Positions 1 to 24,383 of a stretch of 64,000 nucleotides of DNA are shown here, one piece after another. Positions within the stretch are counted from its first letter, which is position 1, and each line of letters opens with the position of its first letter. This stretch comes from Escherichia coli (lineage in GTDB: Bacteria > Pseudomonadota > Gammaproteobacteria > Enterobacterales > Enterobacteriaceae): the NCBI RefSeq assembly GCF_003019035.1, contig NZ_CP027447.1; one strand, 5' to 3'. The notes under the pieces were generated by a model. The model was not told the DNA's origin. It saw only the letters and a list, made by a program, of their open reading frames with translations, and did not search any database. The position numbers and the translations under genes were made by a program.

Positions 1-259
1 CGGGCATTGGGTCCGCTTCCAGCACTGTTTTTGCATGATAATCATACAAATAGGTGCCATTACAGCAAATAGCAGGTGTATCCAGCGCCAGCGCCTGATA
101 AAAAGGATGAATAGCGACGTGATGGCGACCTGTGACGATGATTAATTGATAGCCTGCTTCGCGAGCGCGGGCCAGGGCTTCTATCGATGATGGAAGCAAG
201 GTCTTTTTCGGAGTCAATAAGGTGCCGTCTAAGTCGAGAGCAATCACGCGTGTGGTCAT
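1..259 (-). CDS. ybhA: HAD-family (Cof-type) phosphatase YbhA, N-terminal part; gene runs off the window start
   Basis: Reverse-strand translation from the ATG at 257-259 reads MTTRVIALDLDGTLL..., carrying the HAD DxDGT motif; divergent from pgl as in K-12. Confidence 0.8.
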   Translation of the reverse strand, partial: MTTRVIALDLDGTLLTPKKTLLPSSIEALARAREAGYQLIIVTGRHHVAIHPFYQALALDTPAICCNGTYLYDYHAKTVLEADPMP

Positions 260-377
260 GGCGTATTCCAGATTAAGGTTAAGAATTTTCTTCTGCGCGA
301 ATGGTACACCGATACCACTATTGGACAAAATTCTGCGTTTTAATTCAGCATTCACCGCCAAAAGCGACTAATTTTAG

Positions 378-1409
<1,032 letters not shown>

Positions 1410-1421
1410 CCGCTGATTTAA

Positions 1422-1446
1422 CCGGCGCAGTCTCTCCTGCGCCGGT
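1422..1446. terminator. Hairpin between convergent pgl and ybhD, probable bidirectional terminator
   Basis: Inverted repeat ccggcgcag / ctgcgccgg directly after the pgl stop. Confidence 0.45.
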
Positions 1447-1449
1447 GTA

Positions 1450-2403
1450 TTAACCTATCTCCTGTAACGCATGTCTCTGGCGTTCGACGATATTGGTCCA
1501 CAAATTGTCTTTATCGTCAGTCCACAAATTAATCAGCAAGGCAAAAAAGCGTTCAGCTGCCGGAGAAAGCACGGCATCTTTGCGGCGAATAATCCCCAAT
1601 GTCCGACGTATAACGGGTTCCACCAGTGGGATACCAATAATCGAAGAATAGGGCGCATGGGGCATTGCCAGACCAGGAAGCGCCGAAATCCCCAGTCCCG
1701 CCTCCACCAGCCCTAATGACGTCGAAAGATGACGCACTTCGTAAAACCAGTCCAGCTTCCAGGGCTTGTCGGCTAGCTGTTGTTCTATCAACAGTCGGTT
1801 GCCGCTGGAGGAGCGTACGCCAATCATTTTGTAACCCACTAACTCCTGCCATTCTACAAGCTGCTTTTTGGCCAATGGATGGTCACGCCGACAGGCCAGC
1901 ACGAACGGCTCGTTGACCAGTGGGGTAAAATCGATGGATGAATTTGTGACGTTGTTCATGTTTATGCCAAAGTCTGATTCGTTACACAGCACCGATTCCA
2001 TGCAATTATTCGTGCCTTGTTCCAGAATCCGCACTTTAATATTGGGATACAGCTCATTAAATTTACCGATTGCCAGCGGTAAAAAATAAAATACTGCGGT
2101 CGGAATACACGCTAATGTCACCATACCACGATGATAAGCATTCATATCACGAATATTAAAAAGCGTTTCATCGAATTTCTTTATTAATTCCCGCGCCTCC
2201 GGGAGCAATCTTTTTCCTGCTTTTGTTAACGTAACCTTGCGAGTTGTACGCTCAAATAGTTGGATATGTAAATCCTCCTCCATCTTTTTTATTCTTCGCG
2301 TTAATGCAGGTTGCGTAATATTGAGTAATTTAGCGGCATTGTTAAATGAACTGGACTCTGCCAGTATGACAAATGCCTTCATACTTGATAATTCATGCTT
2401 CAT
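1450..2403 (-). CDS. ybhD: LysR-family transcriptional regulator YbhD
   Basis: Track ORF 1450..2466 trimmed to the internal ATG (MKHELSS...), giving 317 aa; N-terminal HTH then LysR substrate domain. Confidence 0.85.
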   Translation of the reverse strand: MKHELSSMKAFVILAESSSFNNAAKLLNITQPALTRRIKKMEEDLHIQLFERTTRKVTLTKAGKRLLPEARELIKKFDETLFNIRDMNAYHRGMVTLACIPTAVFYFLPLAIGKFNELYPNIKVRILEQGTNNCMESVLCNESDFGINMNNVTNSSIDFTPLVNEPFVLACRRDHPLAKKQLVEWQELVGYKMIGVRSSSGNRLLIEQQLADKPWKLDWFYEVRHLSTSLGLVEAGLGISALPGLAMPHAPYSSIIGIPLVEPVIRRTLGIIRRKDAVLSPAAERFFALLINLWTDDKDNLWTNIVERQRHALQEIG

Positions 2404-2586
2404 TATTACTCCGGAAAATGGAAGCGTCGATTTTGGGTGGCTGACCGTTAAAAATTTTAACTGCATTTAACCAACTTAAATTAATGAAAAAATGTTATTA
2501 ATCGTTGAGCTAAAGTCATTAGAGATGCTTTGCCCTTAATGTAACCATATCGCAATAAGTTATGTTTTTAAATTGAGGGCATTATT

Positions 2587-3639
2587 ATGAAAAAAATACC
2601 CTGCGTGATGATGCGAGGTGGAACCTCGAGGGGCGCGTTCCTGTTAGCGGAACATCTACCCGAAGATCAAACGCAGCGCGATAAAATATTGATGGCAATT
2701 ATGGGTTCCGGTAACGATCTGGAAATTGACGGTATTGGCGGCGGTAATCCGCTGACCAGTAAAGTCGCCATTATTAGCCGCTCCAGCGATCCGCATGCAG
2801 ATGTCGATTATCTGTTTGCTCAAGTTATCGTCCATGAGCAACGTGTCGATACCACGCCTAACTGCGGCAATATGCTGTCTGGCGTTGGGGCATTCGCCAT
2901 TGAAAATGGTTTGATTGCAGCGACTTCGCCAGTTACCCGCGTACGTATCCGCAACGTCAATACGGGTACGTTCATCGAAGCTGATGTGCAAACGCCAAAT
3001 GGTGTTGTCGAGTACGAGGGTAGCGCCAGAATTGACGGCGTACCGGGTACTGCCGCACCGGTTGCGCTCACTTTCCTGAATGCCGCCGGAACGAAAACCG
3101 GAAAAGTCTTCCCGACAGATAATCAGATTGATTATTTTGACGATGTCCCGGTGACCTGTATCGATATGGCGATGCCAATTGTCATTATTCCTGCTGAATA
3201 TCTGGGAAAAACAGGCTATGAATTACCGGCAGAGCTGGATGCCGACAAAGCATTATTAGCCCGCATTGAATCTATCCGTCTACAAGCGGGTAAAGCAATG
3301 GGCTTAGGCGATGTCAGTAATATGGTTATCCCTAAACCTGTACTTATTTCTCCAGCGCAGAAAGGCGGGGCAATTAATGTGCGTTATTTTATGCCGCATT
3401 CTTGCCATCGCGCTTTGGCGATAACCGGTGCTATTGCTATTTCCAGTAGTTGTGCATTGGAAGGCACCGTCACCCGACAAATCGTCCCTTCTGTAGGATA
3501 CGGCAATATCAATATTGAACACCCCAGTGGTGCGCTCGACGTTCATTTAAGTAATGAAGGTCAGGATGCCACGACGTTACGCGCATCTGTTATTCGGACG
3601 ACCAGAAAAATATTTTCCGGTGAAGTTTATCTTCCCTGA
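2587..3639 (+). CDS. ybhH: PrpF-family isomerase-like protein YbhH
   Basis: 350-aa ORF; sequence and length match E. coli YbhH. Confidence 0.85.
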   Translation: MKKIPCVMMRGGTSRGAFLLAEHLPEDQTQRDKILMAIMGSGNDLEIDGIGGGNPLTSKVAIISRSSDPHADVDYLFAQVIVHEQRVDTTPNCGNMLSGVGAFAIENGLIAATSPVTRVRIRNVNTGTFIEADVQTPNGVVEYEGSARIDGVPGTAAPVALTFLNAAGTKTGKVFPTDNQIDYFDDVPVTCIDMAMPIVIIPAEYLGKTGYELPAELDADKALLARIESIRLQAGKAMGLGDVSNMVIPKPVLISPAQKGGAINVRYFMPHSCHRALAITGAIAISSSCALEGTVTRQIVPSVGYGNINIEHPSGALDVHLSNEGQDATTLRASVIRTTRKIFSGEVYLP

Positions 3640-21394: not shown

Positions 21395-22099
21395 ATGGAC
21401 AGATTCCCACGTTCTGATTCAATCGTACAAACCCGAACTGGCCTGCAAACCTATATGGCACAGGTCTATGGCTGGATGACCGTTGGCTTGCTGCTTACTG
21501 CGTTTGTTGCCTGGTATGCGGCTAATTCCGCGGCCGTTATGGAGCTATTATTCACCAACCGCATCTTTTTAATTGGTCTGGTAATAGCACAATTAGCTCT
21601 GGTTATTGTGTTATCAGCGATGATTCAAAAGCTGAGCGCAGGTGTAACGACGATGCTCTTTATGCTTTATTCGGCGCTGACGGGTCTTACGCTTTCCAGT
21701 ATTTTCATTGTCTATACCGCTGCTTCTATCGCCAGTACTTTCGTCGTTACTGCCGGGATGTTCGGCGCAATGAGCCTGTACGGTTACACCACGAAGCGCG
21801 ATCTAAGTGGTTTCGGCAATATGCTGTTTATGGCGTTGATCGGCATTGTGCTGGCATCGCTGGTCAACTTCTGGCTGAAAAGCGAAGCGTTGATGTGGGC
21901 AGTCACATACATCGGCGTGATTGTCTTTGTCGGATTGACGGCGTATGACACCCAGAAACTGAAAAATATGGGTGAGCAGATTGATACCCGCGACACGTCG
22001 AACCTGCGCAAATATTCCATTCTTGGCGCGTTGACCTTGTATCTGGACTTCATCAACCTGTTCCTGATGTTGCTGCGGATCTTCGGCAACCGCCGTTAA
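21395..22099 (+). CDS. ybhL: BI-1/TMBIM-family inner membrane protein YbhL
   Basis: Track ORF 21314..22099 trimmed to ATG at 21395 (MDRFPRSDS...) behind an AGGAG RBS, giving 234 aa; seven predicted TM helices. Confidence 0.9.
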   Translation: MDRFPRSDSIVQTRTGLQTYMAQVYGWMTVGLLLTAFVAWYAANSAAVMELLFTNRIFLIGLVIAQLALVIVLSAMIQKLSAGVTTMLFMLYSALTGLTLSSIFIVYTAASIASTFVVTAGMFGAMSLYGYTTKRDLSGFGNMLFMALIGIVLASLVNFWLKSEALMWAVTYIGVIVFVGLTAYDTQKLKNMGEQIDTRDTSNLRKYSILGALTLYLDFINLFLMLLRIFGNRR

Positions 22100-22243: not shown

Positions 22244-22948
22244 TTGAACAGACGATCCTCTGCTACTCAATTACAGCAAAAAAGCGCTTTGCTCAGAAAA
22301 ATGTTGCCCCTCATTTGGTGGTTAACAGCTGCTGGAGTATGGGCTACGGCAGGCACAGCCTGGATACTGCAGCACATGCATTGGGTTGCTTCACTAGAGT
22401 CTCCAGGCGCGTTTGTCTTCGCTTTGTCTGCGCTGATAATAATTGGTTTCTGGTTAAACAATGCGCTGAAAAGGCTCAAGGCATTAGGCGCATGTCTGGT
22501 CTATCTGCTATTAATCTTGCTTATTGGCTTTCTCTTCACCAGCCTTTTTACCTTTTCGAGCATAGCGACGGTAATGGGAATTACGGGAGGGATGTTTGCC
22601 ACAATGGCGCTGATTTTCTGTTGTATTAATAGGGCTATCCCGCCAGTCAGACAGTTATGTTTATATATCTTCTGTGGTTTGAGTATTGCTTTTGTTGTTA
22701 ACCTGATTCTCACCAGCAGTTTTTCCGTGTGGTTAGCGAGTATTTTGACTGTCGTTATCTGGGGCGTTACGGCTGCCTGTGAAGCAACAACACTGGAAGA
22801 TTTGATTCGTGTTGCCGACTTTTCTGACATTACGGGTTTTCTTCGCTGTACCGTTCCTGGAGCAATAACTCTCTATTTCAGTATTCTAACTGTGCTTTTT
22901 AGGATTGCTGTAACGCTTCTTGATTTTATTAATGGGTTAGTGTGGTAG
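22244..22948 (+). CDS. ybhM: BI-1-like inner membrane protein, YbhM-like paralog 1
   Basis: Track ORF; the listed first codon is TTG, so the true start is uncertain (next ATG is at about 22301). C-terminus GAITLY...DFIN resembles YbhL. Symbol assigned by position. Confidence 0.7.
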   Translation: MNRRSSATQLQQKSALLRKMLPLIWWLTAAGVWATAGTAWILQHMHWVASLESPGAFVFALSALIIIGFWLNNALKRLKALGACLVYLLLILLIGFLFTSLFTFSSIATVMGITGGMFATMALIFCCINRAIPPVRQLCLYIFCGLSIAFVVNLILTSSFSVWLASILTVVIWGVTAACEATTLEDLIRVADFSDITGFLRCTVPGAITLYFSILTVLFRIAVTLLDFINGLVW

Positions 22949-23016: not shown

Positions 23017-23730
23017 ATGAAGTCGCGGTCGTTAAATAACATAACTAATAAGTTCCAGCACGAAGCCAGAATATTAAACGCCATATGGCTCATTACCGCT
23101 TTGGGGGTGACAGCAACCGCAGGCCTGGCATGGATAGCTAAGTATCTCGATATCACGGCAACAAAATATGATTCACCGCAAATGTATGTCGCCATAGGAT
23201 TATTATTACTTTGTATGTATGGTTTAAGTAAGGATATCAACAAGATAAATGCCGCCATCGCAGGCCTAATATATCTGTTTTTACTCTCTTTGGTGGCGAT
23301 TGTCGTTGCAAGTTTAGTTCCTGTGCCTGCCATTATCGTCGTGTTCAGCACTGCGGGATCGATGTTTTTAATCAGTATGCTGGCAGGTCTATTGTTTAAA
23401 TTTGATCCTGGTTCTCACCGTTTTATCATTATGATGACGTTGACAGGGTTGGCCCTGGTAATCATCGTGAATGCCACATTAATGAGTGAACGACCCATTT
23501 GGGTAATAAGTTGCTTAATGATTGTCTTATGGTCAGGCATTATCTCGCATGGACGAAATAAGCTCCTTGAACTGACAGGAAAAAGCCATAGTGAAGAATT
23601 ATGGAGTCCGGTTCGTTGCGCTGTTACAGGTGCATTAACACTCTATTACTATTTTATCGGCTTCTTTGGGATTCTTGCAGCAATAGCGATGACGCTTGTC
23701 TGGCAAAGGCATACGCGGTTTCATATTTAA
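23017..23730 (+). CDS. BI-1-like inner membrane protein, YbhM-like paralog 2
   Basis: 237-aa ORF with ATG start behind an AAGGA RBS; shares blocks with the upstream paralog (IWLITALGVTATAG vs IWWLTAAGVWATAG; RCAVTGALTLY vs RCTVPGAITLY). Its length equals annotated K-12 YbhM, so either paralog could be the orthologue. Confidence 0.7.
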   Translation: MKSRSLNNITNKFQHEARILNAIWLITALGVTATAGLAWIAKYLDITATKYDSPQMYVAIGLLLLCMYGLSKDINKINAAIAGLIYLFLLSLVAIVVASLVPVPAIIVVFSTAGSMFLISMLAGLLFKFDPGSHRFIIMMTLTGLALVIIVNATLMSERPIWVISCLMIVLWSGIISHGRNKLLELTGKSHSEELWSPVRCAVTGALTLYYYFIGFFGILAAIAMTLVWQRHTRFHI

Positions 23731-23788
23731 CGCACTTTCGACTTACGTTTAGAAATGTAGTATCTGAAATACAATAGTGGAGAATATC

Positions 23789-24145
23789 ATGCAGTTAGTT
23801 TGTACCATCGATAATAAATATATGGATAAATTTATGGCTATACTGCTTTCAGGAGTGTTACTTTCCTTGAAAGAAGGCACGATAACTATAGATGAATCTG
23901 AACTACTAGTTTTCAGACCTTTTATTTCCAGGCTTTTACACAAAAATGATTGTGATAAAGAGCTAATAGAGATAATTGATCTTGGTTGTGATCTTGAAAG
24001 TATTGAATCATTAGTTCCTGAGTATCTTGATGATGCTATAAAAAACTTAATAATCAAAACAAGTGATTTTACATATGCAATAAAAGATAGTTATCCTTTG
24101 AGTAATAAAATGGAACATGCAGTATCTTTTATGTTTAGAGATTAA
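23789..24145 (+). CDS. Hypothetical small acidic protein (about 118 aa)
   Basis: Track ORF 23777..24145 (GTG) trimmed to ATG at 23789 behind GGAG; very AT-rich; no recognisable motif. Confidence 0.45.
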   Translation: MQLVCTIDNKYMDKFMAILLSGVLLSLKEGTITIDESELLVFRPFISRLLHKNDCDKELIEIIDLGCDLESIESLVPEYLDDAIKNLIIKTSDFTYAIKDSYPLSNKMEHAVSFMFRD

Positions 24146-24158
24146 AAAGGTTTATAAA

Positions 24159-24380
24159 ATGTTCAAAGATAAAACTCTGGCAGCAGATATCAGCGCATTA
24201 ATGCTCAATATTGGTTCTCAATTAGATGCGTCAGTATTATATGTTCAGAAAGCTTGCGATGAATCTGAGCTTAATATTTATCGTTCCGCCGTCGGGGAAA
24301 TTATGGGGCGCATGTTAATCGATATCATGAACCCCATCTATAAACAGCATCCCGAACTTAAACCAAAAGAACTTAACTAA
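24159..24380 (+). CDS. Hypothetical small protein (about 73 aa)
   Basis: Track ORF 24117..24380 trimmed to ATG at 24159 (MFKDKTLAAD...) behind AAAGG, 14 nt after the preceding stop; AT-rich; ends 4 nt from the ybhN stop. Confidence 0.4.
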   Translation: MFKDKTLAADISALMLNIGSQLDASVLYVQKACDESELNIYRSAVGEIMGRMLIDIMNPIYKQHPELKPKELN

Positions 24381-24383
24381 ACT

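Follow-up and report, generated by a model that had tools for sequence, protein, structure and literature searches.

Two consecutive small open reading frames (ORFs) of Escherichia coli, ORF1 (positions 23789-24145, plus strand) and ORF2 (24159-24380, plus strand), are probably orphan immunity genes against polymorphic toxins of the contact-dependent inhibition (CDI) or Rhs type, housed between ybhL and ybhN in what would be a small poly-immunity islet of variable content. Both lie in a 64,000-nucleotide stretch of DNA, referred to here as the window. ORF1 belongs to Pfam family DUF3969, and ORF2 to a large unnamed family. Across several unrelated lineages and delivery systems, relatives of each ORF lie directly behind one particular toxin domain: a domain of ~90 residues for ORF1, and a domain of ~40 residues with six cysteines for ORF2. 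One toxin domain carried on different delivery proteins, with the same small gene after it, is the signature of a polymorphic toxin-immunity pair (PMC3150448). The prediction draws on Pfam and the Prokaryotic Genome Annotation Pipeline (PGAP) for ORF1, on a profile search and AlphaFold2 modelling for ORF2, and on the gene order of relatives and the ratio of nonsynonymous to synonymous substitution rates (dN/dS) for both.

Gene order around relatives of ORF1 and ORF2

ORF1 matches the DUF3969 model (PF13108) with an independent E-value of 7.1e-14, residues 10-91 aligning to model positions 4-85 of 106. The AlphaFold2 model of ORF1 is a helical bundle with a predicted local distance difference test score (pLDDT) of 83, and its structural neighbours in AFDB50 are all DUF3969 proteins, from Salmonella, Xenorhabdus, Providencia, Pseudomonas, Neisseria, Clostridium, Enterococcus, and Listeria. 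Fic matches that a chimeric DUF3969/Fic sequence (P0009) drew into the homologue search were discarded, and a 26-residue motif in a "TIGR02646 family protein" of the PDB (9n69, E = 0.008) is taken as chance or a short shared motif. A literature search of an incomplete library returned no paper mentioning DUF3969.

DUF3969 genes occupy the immunity position in four lineages: behind a Pseudomonas aeruginosa CdiA, a Moraxella bovis CdiA, an E. coli Rhs orphan, and a protein of a metagenome contig. In P. aeruginosa (NZ_CP116719, L042), a DUF3969 gene whose product shares 36% identity with ORF1 (E = 2e-20) starts 13 nt after a CdiA C-terminal fragment with DUF637. The last ~90 residues of this CdiA end read …KYPQGF…KVYRDGFD…HYFQSQSGKVFDVKVK..WSN, and the motif of the ORF1-linked domain as a whole is KYPxGF...KVYxDGxD...HYFxSxSGxVFxVKVK..WSN. 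Past the DUF3969 gene lie orphan toxin/immunity modules comprising DUF596, a deaminase, EndoU, and a glutamine deamidase with YrhB; positions 1-12000 of L042 contain a long array of such orphan modules. The ~90-residue domain also closes a full-length filamentous-haemagglutinin/CdiA gene on M. bovis plasmids, with 59% identity to the P. aeruginosa version. The end of this CdiA gene shares 4 nt with the DUF3969 gene behind it, and a "polymorphic toxin type 24" module comes next. These 46-kb plasmids are mobilizable (NZ_CP087838, L061:1-3255) and carry a complete CdiA gene, a DUF3969 gene, and an orphan type 24 module. Among 5,426 complete E. coli genomes, the set used throughout, about 600, including EC93, contain an Rhs element with an orphan Rhs C-terminal end (Rhs-CT) that finishes in the ~90-residue domain; the toxin has a nonsense codon, and a TAATG stop/start overlap connects it to a frameshifted DUF3969 gene. 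In the low-GC metagenome contig (L059), the domain ends a 269-residue protein encoded 119 nt upstream of the DUF3969 gene. Because this one toxin domain, on different delivery proteins, has the same small gene behind it each time, DUF3969 is predicted to be the immunity partner of that toxin. The gene upstream of ORF1 in the window is ybhM, with no toxin end, and ORF1 is for this reason regarded as an orphan copy. The ~90-residue domain has no relative in Pfam, NCBIfam, or the PDB.

ORF2 has no match in Pfam, NCBIfam, or PADLOC; ORF1 likewise has no PADLOC match and no useful NCBIfam match, and PHROG matches for both ORFs occur only at E > 0.01. An exhaustive profile search nevertheless places ORF2 in a family of 640 clusters at E <= 1e-3 and 133 clusters at E <= 1e-10. 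Members are ~73 residues long and share the motif A..IS.LMLE….LD.SV..V…C…EF..YR.AVG.IMG.ML..I.NP[IL]Y..HP.LKP. The AlphaFold2 model of ORF2 is a two-helix hairpin (pLDDT 97.4). Comparison with the PDB yielded no significant match; a sequence match to a calpain segment was marginal and is taken as chance. A first-pass annotation of the window had seen no recognisable motifs in either protein, which is incorrect for ORF1 and holds only nominally for ORF2, a protein of no named family that nonetheless belongs to at least 640 clusters.

The domain that precedes ORF2 relatives has the motif C..xK..C...CS.SSLPTxDxGFxFWNCVNxCxxxxGC. The closest relative of ORF2 outside Escherichia (P0058, 53% identity) overlaps the end of an Rhs gene by 11 nt. 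This Rhs protein has RHS_repeat and YD-shell Pfam matches and passes from a canonical core end (…YYDPSIGRFITEDPIGFDGG…RYRDPFG) through a proline-rich linker into the six-cysteine domain CDKIRDLAIDFCSDTSLPTQDNGFEFWNCVNKFMKEHGC. The position right after the Rhs core cleavage motif is what defines Rhs toxin domains. An Rhs core end (...DPIGxxGG...) with a six-cysteine domain and an ORF2 homologue at -11 to +12 nt is found at L050/51, L054/55, and L056-58; of these, L056-58 carry the same six-cysteine domain and L054/55 a divergent version, with ORF2 homologues 3-12 nt downstream. At L014, the fragment upstream of the ORF2 homologue retains the tail of the domain. Salmonella has an intact homologue, 60% identical to ORF2, behind a decayed Rhs core end and a six-cysteine domain that has degenerated and is interrupted by stop codons. 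In Salmonella enterica OX345040 (L043:5900-7100), two SymE-like ORFs and IS3-family fragments surround the homologue, which sits beside a fimbrial usher/chaperone operon.

The six-cysteine domain is also present on proteins other than Rhs. In four Burkholderia and two Polyangium genomes it is preceded by a signal peptide, lipoprotein-like region, or transmembrane segment, and the ORF2 homologue is always 2-15 nt downstream. In a reverse test, metagenomes were searched with GFKFWNCVN alone; three contigs were recovered, and an ORF2 homologue lies directly downstream in all three. One of them (L048) encodes a bare 64-residue product that consists of a signal peptide and the six-cysteine peptide (a 43-residue domain). 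Altogether, the domain was found at 13 distinct loci, and at all 13 an ORF2-family gene is in the immunity position; in at least three of them the domain comes after a canonical Rhs core end. In the window, the gene upstream of ORF2 is ORF1, with no toxin end. No relative of the six-cysteine domain is present in Pfam, NCBIfam, or the PDB, and no description of a six-cysteine Rhs toxin was found in the same incomplete library.

The ybhL–ybhN interval

Both ORFs are intact, are on the same strand, and fill the ybhM–ybhN gap. ORF1 encodes 118 residues from an ATG preceded by GGAG 6 nt upstream, and ORF2 encodes 73 residues from an ATG preceded by a weak AAAGG 8 nt upstream. The window is 100% identical to the human commensal E. 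coli SCU-301 over the 1.45 kb searched, and PGAP calls exactly these two coding sequences in SCU-301, ORF1 as "DUF3969 family protein" and ORF2 as "hypothetical protein". The first-pass annotation had described two consecutive ORFs of these sizes, each with its own ribosome-binding site, ahead of the convergent ybhN stop; the coordinates and PGAP calls agree with it, except that the ORFs are separated by 13 nt and not by 14. The ORF2 stop is 3 nt from that of ybhN. The first-pass annotation had also called the pair more AT-rich than its surroundings and the products acidic, and both descriptions are borne out. The window as a whole has a GC content of 0.511, whereas that of ORF1 is 0.291 (0.20 at third codon positions) and that of ORF2 is 0.383, and the lowest-GC 600-bp segments of all 64 kb fall here, with one comparable stretch at 35.1-36.9 kb. 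The predicted proteins are mildly acidic, with isoelectric points of 4.6 (ORF1) and 5.2 (ORF2), and have no signal peptide, transmembrane segment, or hydrophobic segment, with grand averages of hydropathicity of 0.14 and -0.08, respectively. The other, equally AT-rich stretch corresponds to a 670-residue ORF (35682-37694, plus strand) between rhlE and dinG, which the SCU-301 record names "type III effector"; K-12 has ybiA in its place.

The gene order is moaABCDE, ybhL (21395-22099), an extra BI-1 paralog (22244-22948, plus strand), a ybhM-like BI-1 gene (23017-23730, plus strand), ORF1, ORF2, ybhN (24384-25340, minus strand), clsB, and ybhP. Whereas ybhL is a core flank and ybhN a convergent core gene, the two BI-1 genes are variable members of the interval. 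The ybhM–ORF1 spacer (23731-23788, plus strand) contains the Shine-Dalgarno sequence GGAG at 23779-23782 and, from a consensus scan, a promoter-like site, TTTAGA-16-TACAAT, at 23748-23775 on the plus strand, which is at most a possible promoter. A scan for promoters and terminators gave no significant signal, with nine promoter-like sites against 6.1 ± 2.5 expected from shuffling. The 13-nt spacer between the ORFs (24146-24158, plus strand) holds the weak AAAGG at 24146-24150; other alleles have no such spacer, the ORFs being directly adjacent or sharing 8 nt. The window contains no toxin fragment, no cdi, rhs, or type VI secretion system (T6SS) locus is nearby, and the flanks are core chromosomal genes. 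A phage-derived or anti-phage defence gene was considered and rejected, given the PADLOC and PHROG results above and these flanks.

The two frames are kept in E. coli, Shigella, E. albertii, E. fergusonii, E. whittamii, and one further Escherichia clade, with protein identity down to 65-70%. Nei-Gojobori estimates between diverged E. coli alleles of the locus put dN/dS at ~0.26 for ORF1 (Fisher p = 1.5e-8), the two main allele clades of which differ by a dN of 0.25 and a dS of ~0.9-1.0, and at 0.2-0.3 for ORF2 (p = 9e-5). The corresponding values are 0.01-0.04 for the flanking core genes ybhN and ybhL and 0.2-0.4 for the fast-evolving ybhM. Since the frames are intact and dN/dS is well below 1 between diverged alleles, both are real protein-coding genes and, on these estimates, are under purifying but relaxed selection. 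The first-pass annotation had reasoned that frames without conservation in related genomes would speak against its prediction; the frames are conserved. Between E. coli strains, the dS of ybhL and ybhN is 0.1-0.35, which seems high within a species; long-standing allelic lineages are one possible cause, and recombination near the variable locus is another.

The distribution of the genes is patchy. The ybhM/ybhN flanks are matched in 5,411 of the 5,426 genomes, and the full arrangement of the window is found in just 17. Any part of 23731-24383 is present in 39 genomes and both ORFs in 30. Alleles at the one locus fall at ~98, 92, 78/77, and 73% nucleotide identity, and all inspected loci are placed between ybhL and ybhN. 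Small size, a predicted cytoplasmic location, sequence diversity, and a patchy strain distribution, the features looked for in immunity proteins, are seen in both ORFs.

There is considerable variability in what the interval contains. In K-12, ybhM is the only gene between ybhL and ybhN; KS-NP019 has the extra BI-1 gene and ybhM, and SCU-301, as represented by the window, has the extra BI-1 gene, ybhM, ORF1, and ORF2. Strains 88-3493 and FDAARGOS_943 have no annotated ybhM and instead an unannotated 114-residue ORF with multiple transmembrane segments (in 88-3493, L002:3599-3943, in the place of ybhM), followed by ORF1 and ORF2. E. coli 042 carries a ybhM pseudogene, DUF3969, a 152-residue hypothetical protein, a SUKH-4 immunity protein, and ORF2, and EC42405 carries DUF3969, a 154-residue hypothetical protein, and SUKH-4, with no ORF2. 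In E. whittamii, ORF2 stands alone, directly after the ybhL region. The locus is interrupted by insertion sequence IS1 or IS2 in some strains, and truncated copies occur. The 152-154-residue hypothetical protein between DUF3969 and SUKH-4 (042, L005:4525-4983; EC42405, L004:4453-4917) has no Pfam, NCBIfam, PADLOC, or PHROG match and may be a further uncharacterised immunity protein.

Megablast against K-12-type genomes, which make up >99% of the complete genomes, shows homology ending at position 23721 and restarting at 24366, and comparison of the junctions defines 23722-24365 as the segment missing from them. The last 15 nt of ORF2 (24366-24380, plus strand; AAAGAACTTAACTAA) are retained beside the ybhN stop in these genomes, and the K-12 state is for that reason explained as a deletion of ~644 bp. 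By this comparison, the common K-12 arrangement is a deletion from an older, genus-wide locus and not the ancestral state. The extra BI-1 paralog between ybhL and ybhM is likewise missing from K-12-type genomes. The whole ybhL–ybhN interval can be viewed as a variable islet, to which the BI-1 membrane proteins might belong. In E. albertii NBRC 107761 (L015:14316-14604), ybhP-clsB-ybhN (window 24410-27232) is gone, and the ORF2 homologue is kept beside a 26-nt ybhN remnant.

This history bears on whether ORF1 and ORF2 are functionless, decaying relics of ancient toxin-immunity cassettes on their way to loss. Their rarity among complete genomes, the clean deletion scar in K-12-type genomes, the insertions and truncated copies, the lack of a toxin gene at the locus, and the frameshift in the Rhs-linked E. 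coli copy of DUF3969 would all fit such a fate. It is an unlikely one, though the likeliest of the alternatives considered, because neutral relics of this age (dS up to ~1) would have gained stops and frameshifts, whereas the frames are intact across several Escherichia species and deeply diverged alleles, with dN/dS (~0.26) significantly below 1.

The same comparison addresses two readings in which the ORFs would act with a neighbour. As accessory or regulatory factors of the BI-1/YbhM membrane paralogs, they would be expected where they are, directly downstream of two same-strand BI-1 paralogs that are themselves variable. This role is highly improbable, given that the ORFs are present without annotated ybhM in 88-3493 and FDAARGOS_943, that ORF2 directly follows the ybhL region in E. 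whittamii, that most E. coli carry ybhM without the ORFs, and that relatives in other genera are not beside BI-1 genes. A single two-gene system, for example a toxin–antitoxin (TA) pair, is the least probable of the alternatives considered. The ORFs are adjacent on one strand, are closely spaced or overlapping, and usually co-occur; however, ORF1 is found without ORF2 in EC42405 and three other genomes, ORF2 is found without ORF1 in E. whittamii (hit H67), and two genes intervene between them in 042. Outside Escherichia the families are never neighbours, each pairs with a different toxin domain, and there is no match to a TA or defence family in Pfam, NCBIfam, or PADLOC. A type II TA pair in particular was rejected, as the ORFs are separate or split in other strains and have no TA family homology. 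The first-pass annotation had offered immunity, antitoxin, or accessory functions side by side; the toxin-immunity gene order of relatives of both ORFs favours the first of these, and the separability of the ORFs and their presence without ybhM tell against the other two.

Predicted function and its limits

In the favoured explanation, ORF1 and ORF2 would be two independent orphan immunity genes in an ancestral, hypervariable islet. The product of each would be small and cytoplasmic and would bind and neutralise one toxin domain delivered by rivals, ORF1 acting on the ~90-residue C-terminal domain of CdiA and Rhs proteins and ORF2 on the ~40-residue six-cysteine C-terminal domain. As there is no cognate toxin gene at the locus, the protection would be aimed at non-self attack and not at self-intoxication. 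Such a threat is plausible in this niche because both cognate toxin families occur in Rhs elements of Enterobacteriaceae (E. coli and Salmonella). The separability of the genes between strains and the SUKH-4 gene in the same islet of 042 and EC42405 suggest a poly-immunity islet. Binding, neutralisation, expression in the strain, and a fitness benefit are all presumed in this scheme. Supernumerary, isolated immunity genes that protect from non-self toxins are an established concept, proposed for SUKH genes (PMC3113570; also PMC3150448).

A number of points weigh against this explanation. The immunity role of DUF3969 and of the ORF2 family is read from gene order only, and the toxicity of both domains is itself presumed, since neither has a relative in the databases searched. 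Some carriers of the six-cysteine domain are Sec-exported, whereas the ORF2 family is cytoplasmic, and the compartments would match only if the domain re-enters the cytoplasm. The loss of the genes from >99% of E. coli, with IS1/IS2 insertions and truncated copies elsewhere, suggests that any benefit is weak or niche-specific, and the promoter-like site ahead of ORF1 is not significant relative to the shuffled expectation. Finally, ORF2 homologues lack a toxin gene nearby at 13 of 20 genome loci and in two of six protein look-ups (the genome loci were found with degenerate DNA patterns, two of 22 matches being chance). Some of these toxin-free homologues are in housekeeping contexts, upstream of a large NAD-glutamate dehydrogenase gene in Burkholderia or between rfbB and rfbA; others are beside a transposase or in small-gene arrays that include Imm32. 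Because many loci have no toxin, many members of the ORF2 family would be orphans, as in Escherichia.

Those housekeeping contexts raise the question of whether the ORF2 family is housekeeping or regulatory and its link to the six-cysteine domain non-toxic, the ORF2-type protein acting, for example, as a chaperone or assembly factor for a secreted cysteine-rich peptide. Many members do stand alone in conserved positions by housekeeping genes, some six-cysteine carriers are no more than a signal peptide and a 43-residue domain (L048), and an ATPase of 251 residues recurs beside the family. This role is nonetheless very unlikely: three or more unrelated Rhs genes, as well as the decayed Salmonella Rhs, have the domain in the toxin slot after the core cleavage motif, and in Escherichia the family sits beside DUF3969 and SUKH-4 immunity genes. 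The recurrent protein is an ABC-type ATPase (~251 residues; Pfam AAA_23, AAA_15, AAA_21) that adjoins an ORF2-family gene in at least five unrelated contigs, among them L014:309-1061, L036:2376-3128, L050:3613-4368, and L056:851-1606, the L014 and L036 copies being 66% identical. Its orientation varies from contig to contig, codirectional or convergent, and it is not present in the window. In Zooshikella harenae (L027:250-6200) and Rhizobacter (L016:550-4900), ORF2 homologues lie inside long same-strand arrays of small ORFs spaced 60-170 bp apart, which include GNAT, RraB, Imm32, PTH2, a tyrosine phosphatase fragment, and an IS200 transposase. These could be immunity arrays or integron cassette arrays.

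A wider form of the orphan-immunity explanation is offered tentatively, as a proposal that falls a little short of probable. DUF3969 may be the immunity partner of a ~90-residue toxin domain common to CdiA, Rhs, and Gram-positive carriers, and the ORF2 hairpin family may be the partner of a ~40-residue six-cysteine "mini-toxin" that is found in the Rhs C-terminal slot or as a bare Sec-exported peptide. The ybhL–ybhN interval would then be an ancestral Escherichia poly-immunity islet, with the BI-1 paralogs possibly serving as membrane immunity proteins. Both toxin-immunity families appear undescribed in the literature searched, within an incomplete library. Orphan immunity genes as such are already known; what may be new is the linking of DUF3969 and the ORF2 family to two uncharacterised toxin domains.

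For the window itself, the significance is modest: a rare accessory islet of one commensal E. coli would be explained, and the K-12 arrangement is identified as a deletion derivative. More broadly, a testable function is proposed for DUF3969 and for the ORF2 family, an unnamed, widespread group of 640 or more clusters, and two uncharacterised toxin domains are pointed out, one of which, the six-cysteine domain of the Rhs toxin slot, is unusually small. Orphan immunity genes influence survival in contact-dependent gut warfare, and cataloguing them helps to predict strain compatibility.

Comparison with known systems

ORF1 matches the DUF3969 model, a family annotated as of unknown function, and the linkage of this family to a toxin is added here. 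The predicted products of both ORFs resemble the immunity proteins of colicins and pyocins, which are small, acidic, all-helical, and cytoplasmic and are thought to bind their toxin domains tightly. Unlike the ORFs, these proteins belong to other delivery systems, and they have no sequence similarity or significant structural similarity to ORF1 or ORF2.

The relatives of the two ORFs compare well with CdiI and RhsI (Poole et al. 2011, PMC3150448). Similar to these immunity proteins, they are small and cytoplasmic and are encoded behind, or overlapping, the variable toxin end of CdiA or Rhs; sequence diversity is high in these families, and decayed orphan toxin/immunity pairs are found in Rhs elements. 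The main differences are that the window genes lie between the core genes ybhM and ybhN, with no toxin fragment and no cdi, rhs, or T6SS locus nearby, and that they are known here from sequence alone.

The islet as a whole is reminiscent of the poly-immunity arrays described for the SUKH superfamily (Zhang et al. 2011, PMC3113570). Membership of ORF1 or ORF2 in that superfamily was rejected: neither matches a SUKH profile, ORF1 being modelled as a helical bundle and ORF2 as a two-helix hairpin, and the only SUKH-4 member is a neighbouring gene in 042 and EC42405. In addition, the islet in the window is limited to two genes. As in the poly-immunity arrays, however, the islet is composed of unrelated small immunity-type genes that vary between strains and have no linked toxin, and the versions of the islet in 042 and EC42405 hold a true SUKH-4 member.

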